Below are positions 32,396 through 34,978 of a stretch of DNA of 64,000 bases, in pieces. The notes beneath the pieces are model-generated. The model worked only from the letters and a program-made list of their open reading frames with translations. It was not told where the DNA came from and made no database searches. The translations under genes and the position numbers were made by a program. The stretch is taken from the NCBI RefSeq assembly GCF_054482525.1, contig NZ_CM137006.1, one strand, 5' to 3'. Numbering within the stretch: position 1 is the stretch's first letter; every line of letters starts with the position of its first letter.

Positions 32396-33685
32396 ATGAC
32401 GCGCCGTGCTATCGGGGTGAGTGAAAGACCGCCACTTTTACAGACAATCCCGCTTAGTTTGCAACATTTGTTCGCCATGTTTGGTGCAACCGTCCTGGTG
32501 CCCGTCTTATTTCATATTAACCCGGCGACTGTACTGTTATTTAACGGTATAGGAACACTGCTGTATCTCTTCATCTGTAAAGGGAAAATTCCGGCTTATC
32601 TTGGTTCCAGCTTTGCCTTTATTTCACCGGTATTGTTACTGTTGCCGTTGGGGTATGAAGTCGCGCTGGGCGGCTTTATTATGTGCGGCGTGCTGTTCTG
32701 CCTGGTTTCTTTTATCGTGAAGAAAGCGGGGACCGGCTGGCTGGACGTGCTGTTTCCACCTGCGGCAATGGGCGCAATCGTTGCCGTCATCGGTCTGGAG
32801 TTGGCGGGCGTAGCTGCCGGTATGGCAGGTTTACTCCCGGCTGAAGGGCAAACTCCAGACTCCAAAACCATCATCATCTCCATTACCACGCTGGCGGTTA
32901 CGGTTTTAGGTTCCGTGCTGTTTCGTGGTTTCCTGGCAATTATCCCGATTTTAATTGGCGTGCTGGTGGGCTACGCGCTCTCTTTCGCAATGGGAATTGT
33001 CGATACCACGCCGATTATTAATGCTCACTGGTTTGCGCTGCCAACTCTCTATACGCCGCGCTTCGAGTGGTTTGCCATTCTGACTATTCTGCCAGCGGCG
33101 TTAGTGGTTATTGCCGAACACGTAGGGCACCTGGTGGTAACGGCTAATATCGTCAAAAAAGATCTGCTGCGCGATCCAGGTCTGCACCGTTCGATGTTTG
33201 CTAACGGCTTGTCGACCGTGATCTCCGGCTTCTTTGGCTCCACGCCAAATACTACCTACGGGGAAAACATTGGCGTGATGGCGATCACCCGTGTTTACAG
33301 TACCTGGGTTATCGGCGGGGCGGCGATTTTCGCTATCCTGCTTTCCTGCGTCGGTAAACTGGCTGCTGCTATCCAGATGATCCCATTGCCGGTGATGGGC
33401 GGCGTTTCGCTGCTGCTTTATGGTGTCATCGGTGCTTCCGGTATTCGTGTTTTGATCGAATCGAAAGTGGATTACAACAAAGCACAGAATCTGATCCTGA
33501 CTTCCGTGATTTTGATCATCGGTGTCAGTGGCGCGAAGGTAAACATCGGCGCGGCGGAGCTGAAAGGTATGGCGCTGGCGACCATCGTCGGTATCGGCTT
33601 AAGTTTGATCTTCAAACTGATTAGTGTGCTGCGCCCTGAAGAAGTGGTGCTGGACGCAGAAGACGCGGATATAACAGACAAATAA
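32396..33685 (+). CDS. uraA: Uracil:proton symporter
   Basis: Track ORF 32354..33685; K-12 start MTRRAIGV at 32396 (429 aa). Confidence 0.95.
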
Positions 33686-33779
33686 TGTACCGACCGGGCA
33701 GTGTTGCTGCCCGGTTCAAACATCATGGGATTCTGTGGTAAACTTCTCGCGATTTTGTGAAATCCTGGTTGAGGTATCT

Positions 33780-34481
33780 CTGAACACACCGGCACAGCTC
33801 TCTTTGCCACTTTATCTTCCTGACGACGAAACCTTTGCAAGTTTCTGGCCGGGGGATAACTCCTCTTTACTGGCCGCGCTGCAAAACGTGCTGCGTCAGG
33901 AACATAGCGGTTACATCTATCTCTGGGCACGCGAAGGCGCGGGGCGCAGCCATCTGCTGCACGCGGCTTGCGCGGAATTGTCGCAGCGTGGCGATGCGGT
34001 GGGCTATGTCCCGCTGGATAAACGCACCTGGTTTGTTCCGGAAGTGCTCGACGGTATGGAGCATTTGTCGCTGGTCTGTATCGACAACATTGAGTGTATT
34101 GCAGGCGATGAGTTGTGGGAGATGGCGATTTTCGATCTCTACAATCGAATTCTGGAATCGGGTAAAACACGGTTGTTGATCACCGGCGATCGTCCACCGC
34201 GGCAGTTGAATCTGGGATTACCGGATCTCGCGTCGCGTCTCGACTGGGGGCAGATCTACAAATTGCAGCCACTTTCTGATGAAGATAAGTTGCAGGCGCT
34301 ACAGTTACGCGCGCGTTTGCGTGGTTTTGAACTGCCGGAAGATGTGGGGCGTTTCTTGCTGAAGCGGCTCGACAGAGAAATGCGCACGCTATTTATGACG
34401 TTGGATCAGTTGGATCGTGCGTCGATTACCGCGCAACGTAAGCTGACCATTCCGTTTGTGAAAGAAATTCTGAAATTGTAG
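33780..34481 (+). CDS. hda: DnaA regulatory inactivator Hda
   Basis: Track ORF 33735..34481 (248 aa); the functional 233-aa protein is recalled to start at a CTG, corresponding to 33780. Confidence 0.85.
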
Positions 34482-34495
34482 ATAAGGGGTTTATT

Positions 34496-34589
34496 GTCGG
34501 ATGCGGCGCGAACGCCTTATCCGACCTACGCGAAGTTAATCCATAGTATTCGTAGGCCGTATAAGACGCGGCAAGCGTCGCATCCGGCA
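34496..34589. repeat. REP/BIME cluster (two REP units)
   Basis: gtcggatgcggcgcgaacgccttatccgacctac and gtaggccgtataagacgcggcaagcgtcgcatccggca between hda and yfgD. Confidence 0.6.
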
Positions 34590-34618
34590 ATGTGCTTCAA
34601 CTAGCGATGGAGCACTTC

Positions 34619-34978
34619 TTAACCCACGATTTCCAGTACCTGCTCCGGTGGACGACCAATTCGCGCTTTGCCATTCGCGACCACAATCGGGCGCTCCATT
34701 AGCTTCGAATTATCCACCATTGCCTGAATCAGCGCCTCTTCGCTAAGCGAACTGTCAGCCAGGTTCAGTTCTTTATAAAGATCCTCTTTCTGGCGCATCA
34801 ATTCACGAGCGCTATTCATCCCCAGCATTTTCAGCAAATCACGCAGCGTTGCCGCATCGGCGGGTGTCTCAAGGTAGAGCACCACTTCTGGCTCCACGCC
34901 GTTTTCTTTCAGCAGGTTCAGCGTTTCCCGGCTCTTTGAACAGCGTGGGTTATGGTAGATTTTTACCTGTTTGGTCAT
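34619..34978 (-). CDS. yfgD: ArsC/Spx-family protein YfgD, 119 aa
   Basis: N-terminus MTKQVKIYHNPRCSKSR, synteny. Confidence 0.9.
   Translation of the reverse strand: MTKQVKIYHNPRCSKSRETLNLLKENGVEPEVVLYLETPADAATLRDLLKMLGMNSARELMRQKEDLYKELNLADSSLSEEALIQAMVDNSKLMERPIVVANGKARIGRPPEQVLEIVG

Follow-up and report, generated by a model that had tools for sequence, protein, structure and literature searches.

The hda locus in this stretch of Escherichia coli DNA raises a simple question: at which codon does translation of the gene begin? In the window, by which we mean the whole 64,000-nucleotide stretch that was analysed, the longest open reading frame at the locus runs on the plus strand from 33735 to 34481, is opened by a GTG codon (33735-33737) and encodes 248 amino acids. 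A CTG codon (33780-33782, plus strand) lies in the same frame, 45 nt (15 codons) downstream of this GTG, and gives a product of 233 amino acids. The original prediction described this arrangement, which we read in the sequence as well, and placed the functional start at the CTG; on this point EcoGene 3.0, the K-12 and PGAP records and the comparative tests reported below agree. This CTG start was already established in 2008, and the curated and RefSeq annotations have it right; EcoGene 3.0 lists it as demonstrated, with credit to Su'etsugu et al. 2008.

Identity of the gene and position of the clamp-binding motif

The order of the genes, with uraA upstream of hda and arsC/yfgD and bepA downstream, matches that of E. 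coli K-12, and the 951-nt hda region has 99.4% identity to MG1655 and 100% to E. coli strain PCN033. The hda coding sequence (33780-34481, plus strand) comprises 233 codons followed by TAG and encodes the DnaA regulatory inactivator Hda. The product scores 476.6 bits against the NCBIfam equivalog profile NF005982 (cutoff 268), with full-length coverage of profile positions 1-235, and 281.4 against TIGR03420 (cutoff 194.8). Position 1 of the NF005982 profile corresponds to residue 14 of the 248-residue reading frame, rather than to its residue 1. The original prediction had proposed an alignment with the curated K-12 protein, and this comparison supports it: the coding sequence annotated in NC_000913.3 (b2496, NP_416991.2) starts at the nucleotide equivalent to position 33780 of the window. 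[quoted passage not shown]

The 233-residue Hda is identical at all 233 residues to residues 21-253 of chain E of PDB 5X06, the construct of which consists of a tag followed by MNTPAQ..., that is, the 233-residue form. [quoted passage not shown] In the 233-residue numbering, residue 153 is the arginine expected for the box VII arginine finger of the AAA+ core (codon 34236-34238, plus strand), the role of which in Hda has been described (PMC5397184). Given this identity, we assume that the protein shares with the characterised Hda the RIDA activity, the stimulation of DnaA-ATP hydrolysis together with the DNA-loaded clamp. Between the hda stop codon and arsC (window ~34486-34625) there are REP/BIME-like palindromic units, at which two sub-threshold Rfam matches to naRNA4 (RF02564) were obtained (35.8 and 25.8 bits, for a gathering score of 59.5).

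The two candidate starts place the clamp-binding motif differently, at residue 6 in the 233-residue form and at residue 21 in the 248-residue form. Among distant Hda representatives, the motif begins in most cases between residues 2 and 9, no further than about 10 residues from the N-terminus. Likewise, Hda of Shewanella amazonensis (3BOS) and Caulobacter HdaA, both AAA+ homologues of DnaA domain III, carry the motif at their extreme N-terminus, as Hda does. Because the motif lies close to the N-terminus throughout the family, the family supports the 233-residue form, from which the 248-residue form deviates.

Conservation of the CTG codon and of its ribosome-binding site

The comparative set comprised the hda loci of 80 species-level Enterobacteriaceae genomes, those of 7 further Enterobacterales (Yersinia, Proteus, Erwinia, Dickeya, Hafnia, Xenorhabdus and Serratia) and the window. 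The start CTG is unchanged in all 88 species, and no lineage has replaced CUG by GUG, UUG or AUG, each of which is one base away. Among the 26 positions at which every species has a leucine codon, the start alone has the same codon throughout, the other 25 using 3-6 codons each; since these 25 positions vary while the CTG does not, its invariance is not a matter of codon bias. When all 134 invariant residues were considered (Met and Trp left out), only two had a fixed codon across the 88 species, codon 1 (CTG) and codon 4 (CCG). The constraint is also visible within the species, as 5423 of 5426 complete E. coli genomes carry an intact 36-nt core, from the Shine-Dalgarno sequence through codon 7. 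The presence of a CTG is by itself statistically unremarkable, as 15 of the 44 leucine codons of hda are CTG and another in-frame CTG is found at 33765; the weight of the argument therefore comes from the Shine-Dalgarno sequence, from conservation and from the literature.

All three bases of codon 4 (CCG, 33789-33791) are fixed in the 88 species, and the other conserved proline codons nearby vary. The invariance of this codon suggests that the first ~12 nt of the hda coding region may be constrained at the nucleotide level.

The pattern of substitutions likewise marks the CTG as the border of the coding sequence. From the CTG onward, entropy across the 88 species is 0.87 at third codon positions versus 0.08 at second positions; 5' of it, the species differ by non-triplet indels and there is no codon periodicity, which starts at the CTG. 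No ATG, GTG or TTG is present between the CTG and the nearest in-frame upstream stop in 46 of the 81 Enterobacteriaceae (window included). Most species have in-frame stops 4-15 codons upstream of the CTG; in 27 species the nearest one is only 7 codons away, and in Serratia aquatilis it is 4 codons away with no near-cognate codon in between. The next canonical codon downstream is the TTG at codon 9, within the essential clamp-binding motif. With no canonical start upstream and with this TTG inside the motif, the CTG must initiate translation in the species concerned. A GTG in frame at -15 codons, as in the window, occurs in 9 of the 81 Enterobacteriaceae (window included) and one at -16 codons in 4 more, or 13/81 in total. 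In Salmonella and Citrobacter an ATG occurs in frame 8 codons before the CTG, and longer forms of Hda may exist in these genera. Taken together, the comparative evidence agrees with the CTG start.

The CTG is preceded by a Shine-Dalgarno sequence, GAGGT (33771-33775, plus strand), with 5 nt between GAGG and the CTG, which is invariant in a 27-species alignment. Its pairing with the 3' end of 16S rRNA (-6.9 kcal/mol) ranks in the top 4% of window positions and is stronger than that of arsC (-5.6 kcal/mol) or bepA (-6.5 kcal/mol). The pairing available to the GTG at 33735 (-4.0 kcal/mol) is matched or beaten by 23% of random window positions. The hda leader is less structured than shuffled controls (z = +1.41); a search for conserved RNA structure in the leader alignment returned a consensus of -2.47 kcal/mol without compensatory pairs or covariation, and an Rfam scan gave no match to the leader. 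Initiation at the CTG is thus plain Shine-Dalgarno-driven initiation on an open site.

An out-of-frame mini-ORF (33757-33783: GTG AAA TCC TGG TTG AGG TAT CTC TGA) terminates on the hda start codon, its TGA overlapping the CTG (cTGA), and Klebsiella, Kluyvera and Raoultella have an ATG-initiated equivalent. Translational coupling through this mini-ORF was considered and judged unlikely, the start of the mini-ORF not being conserved across genera.

Initiation at another in-frame codon is scarcely credible: ATC 33762, CTG 33765 and TTG 33804 (codon 9) do occur in frame, but the first two lie 5' of the Shine-Dalgarno sequence in an indel-rich, unconserved stretch, and the TTG has no Shine-Dalgarno sequence (-1.7 kcal/mol), is replaced by CTG or TTA in 45 of the 88 species and would, as a start, remove half of the essential clamp-binding motif.

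The GTG codon at 33735 and the conserved motif that overlaps it

The last two bases of the GTG that falsely opens the longest frame (33735-33737, plus strand) are the TG of an extended -10 promoter-like motif, TGgTAAACT (33736-33744, plus strand), made up of TG at 33736-33737 and of the hexamer TAAACT at 33739-33744. The pattern TGnTAnnnT, for which the chance rate is 5e-4 per position, was found in 88/88 Enterobacterales at 42-48 nt 5' of the CTG. The invariant alignment columns T12, G13, T15, A16 and T20 are the TG together with T1, A2 and T6 of the hexamer. The pattern is kept where the upstream gene is not uraA (Proteus, Serratia aquatilis), and it is recognisable in Ferrimonas too. From this conservation, we infer that TGgTAAACT is an extended -10 element of a sigma-70 promoter, with a transcription start predicted at about 33750-33753, 3' of the GTG. 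A possible weak -35 element, TTCAAA (33715-33720, plus strand), matches TTGACA at 4/6 positions with an 18-nt spacer, and the best -35 match across the 88 species is 2-4 of 6; a weak -35 element is expected for extended -10 promoters. A two-hexamer promoter scan of 33600-33900 gave no match, this type of scan being uninformative for the extended -10 class. The list of transcription start sites of Kim et al. 2012 contains none near the motif, and only a 2-read site 620 nt upstream. As the GTG lies inside the conserved extended -10 motif, the main hda transcript would probably start 3' of the GTG and would not contain it.

Immediately after the uraA stop codon (33683-33685), a hairpin with an 11-bp stem and a 3-nt loop, and without a U-tract, can form at 33692-33716 (plus strand). 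Its predicted fold is stable (-21 kcal/mol, z = -3.29, with 0/200 shuffles folding as well), and Enterobacteriaceae conserve its 3' arm together with the TTC that follows. A terminator scan of 33600-33900 was negative because the hairpin is not followed by a T-run. The structure may act as a leaky terminator or as an mRNA-stabilising 3' structure for upp-uraA. It overlaps the putative -35 element of hda.

Because this hairpin lacks a U-tract, there are probably read-through transcripts that include the GTG, from which some 248-residue protein could be made. Hda would then consist of two proteoforms, a main 233-residue product of the CUG and a minor 248-residue form translated from upp-uraA read-through transcripts. 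The hairpin, strong but without a U-tract, and the negative terminator scan fit this possibility, and so do the efficiencies of the two start codons. A GUG start reaches about 58% of AUG efficiency and is about 50 times better than CUG, so that even a poor Shine-Dalgarno sequence could give detectable initiation at the GTG. However, the Shine-Dalgarno sequence at the GTG is weak, the extension is unconserved, so that any 248-residue product would not be under selection, and we found no support for a second form in the accessible literature. The main text of the accessible reports on initiation-site ribosome profiling and N-terminomics does not mention hda. Overall, we regard a second proteoform as improbable.

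The conserved block around the GTG, TGTGGTAAACT, might have a function other than that of a -10 element, either as a DnaA box, through which DnaA would feed back on hda, or as an RNA element. Read on the opposite strand, TGTGGTAAA fits the relaxed DnaA-box consensus TTWTNCACA at 8/9 positions, and the hdaA gene of Caulobacter is activated by DnaA, which counts in favour of such a box. However, the conservation across species follows TGnTAnnnT instead: 22 species have C in place of the first T and 7 have A in place of the G after it, and T is invariant at the position where a DnaA box calls for A. On this pattern of conservation the reading of TGTGGTAAA as a DnaA box was dropped. As for an RNA element, there was neither covariation nor an Rfam match. 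We consider both of these functions very improbable, and retain the extended -10 element as the explanation of the conserved block.

Translation of the functional protein from the GTG at 33735, as a 248-residue product, is less probable still, to the point of being nearly untenable. The reading frame is the longest one and has a canonical start, public protein collections widely carry the 248-residue form, and hda was 747 nt long in the older K-12 annotation. Against this, the 15-codon extension is not conserved, its frame being broken by indels and in-frame stops and the GTG being confined to the 13 species noted above; the Shine-Dalgarno pairing of the GTG is at background level; the GTG overlaps the invariant extended -10 motif; the clamp-binding motif is moved to residue 21, unlike in the family; and curated annotation and the literature reject this start.

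We conclude that hda is almost certainly translated from the CUG at 33780 to the 233-residue Hda, and that the GTG at 33735 does not serve as a start, lying instead in a putative promoter element. In the mechanism that we propose, the main transcript would begin 3' of the GTG, from the extended -10 promoter, the GAGGU Shine-Dalgarno sequence in the unstructured leader would direct initiation at 33780, and the near-cognate CUG would be read there by the initiator fMet-tRNA. The K-12 record, five PGAP records, EcoGene 3.0 and the conservation of the codon concur in making the CTG the initiation codon, decoded as fMet.

Annotation of hda and significance of a CUG start

The original prediction also stated that automated annotation would mis-call this start. 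This holds for longest-ORF and ab initio callers, as the 248-residue form is abundant in ENA, Logan and GenBank, but does not hold for the current PGAP pipeline, which draws on family models as evidence and called the CTG in all five RefSeq E. coli records sampled. These five records give WP_001307333.1 (233 aa), and one of them is 100% identical to the window. The exact 248-residue and 233-residue E. coli proteins are both abundant in public collections; in relatives, Hda calls of 200, 225, 235, 238, 241, 244 and 258 aa are found, and in a 2012 dataset the hda model is 747 nt long in E. coli and 678 nt long in Klebsiella. The 235-residue calls, common in Yersinia, Proteus, Erwinia, Dickeya, Hafnia and Xenorhabdus, begin at a GTG two codons before the CTG. 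Since this GTG is part of the Shine-Dalgarno sequence (GAGGTG), there is no space in front of it for a ribosome-binding site, and the 235-residue annotation in these genera is probably a systematic mis-call. Two further peculiarities were noted among the public records. Position 1 of NZ_CP102488.1, a complete E. coli chromosome, is the first base of the hda CTG (window 33780), probably as the result of a rotation tool having taken the DnaA homologue hda for dnaA. Among about 5,470 E. coli hda matches, one lies in a record typed as plasmid, not chromosome.

A CUG start has about 0.86-2% of the efficiency of AUG and accounts for 0.024% of annotated bacterial starts. In E. coli K-12, EcoGene 3.0 gives yfjD as the second confirmed CTG start; it was predicted from conservation and inspection of the ribosome-binding site and was confirmed by start-codon mutagenesis. 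As for hda, an earlier annotation of yfjD with a canonical start was wrong. The two genes are unrelated, and the mis-annotated start of yfjD lies downstream of the true one (TTG, codon 9), whereas that of hda lies upstream.

Outside Enterobacterales, none of the three outgroup hda genes that we compared starts with ATG: the starts are GTG (in a relative at 63% identity), TTG (Corallincola) and GTG (Ferrimonas), each with an in-frame stop 2-5 codons upstream. These cases, three only, hint that hda avoids AUG starts generally and that Enterobacterales represent the extreme of this tendency.

The discovery value of the CTG start of hda is small; its use is rather as a caution and a benchmark. Longest-ORF and ab initio callers give at least 6 different Hda N-termini across Enterobacterales, and the wrong N-termini in databases bury or delete the clamp-binding motif. 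The locus also provides an assay-free signature of non-canonical starts, composed of the invariance of the codon, a conserved Shine-Dalgarno sequence and a 'false' GTG whose TG belongs to a putative extended -10 element.

What might the CUG be for? Hda is needed only in small amounts and CUG is a weak start, so that the codon, at roughly 1% of AUG efficiency, would act as a built-in dosage limiter for Hda, and we infer that this limitation is the selective reason for its use. Weak start codons similarly limit other dose-sensitive regulators, such as IF3, encoded by infC with an AUU start, and DnaA, encoded with a GUG start. The infC gene is autoregulated, as IF3 itself discriminates against AUU; unlike for infC, no IF3-type feedback is known for hda. 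Changing the GUG of dnaA to AUG raises the level of DnaA (PMC5835720). The CUG of hda is far weaker than a GUG of the dnaA type, about 1% versus about 58% of AUG.

A more speculative possibility, which we hold to be unlikely though less so than the alternatives weighed above, is that CUG has been selected specifically and that the synthesis of Hda is coupled to start-codon discrimination, through the level of IF3 or the fidelity of initiation. The invariance of the CUG in the 88 species and in about 5,400 E. coli genomes, set against the drift of the other conserved leucine codons, and the non-AUG starts of the three outgroup genes would fit such a coupling. If so, the co-invariant CCG at codon 4 would be part of a nucleotide-level initiation signal, and RIDA capacity would be tied to how the translation machinery is faring, so that the CUG would do more than simply keep Hda low.
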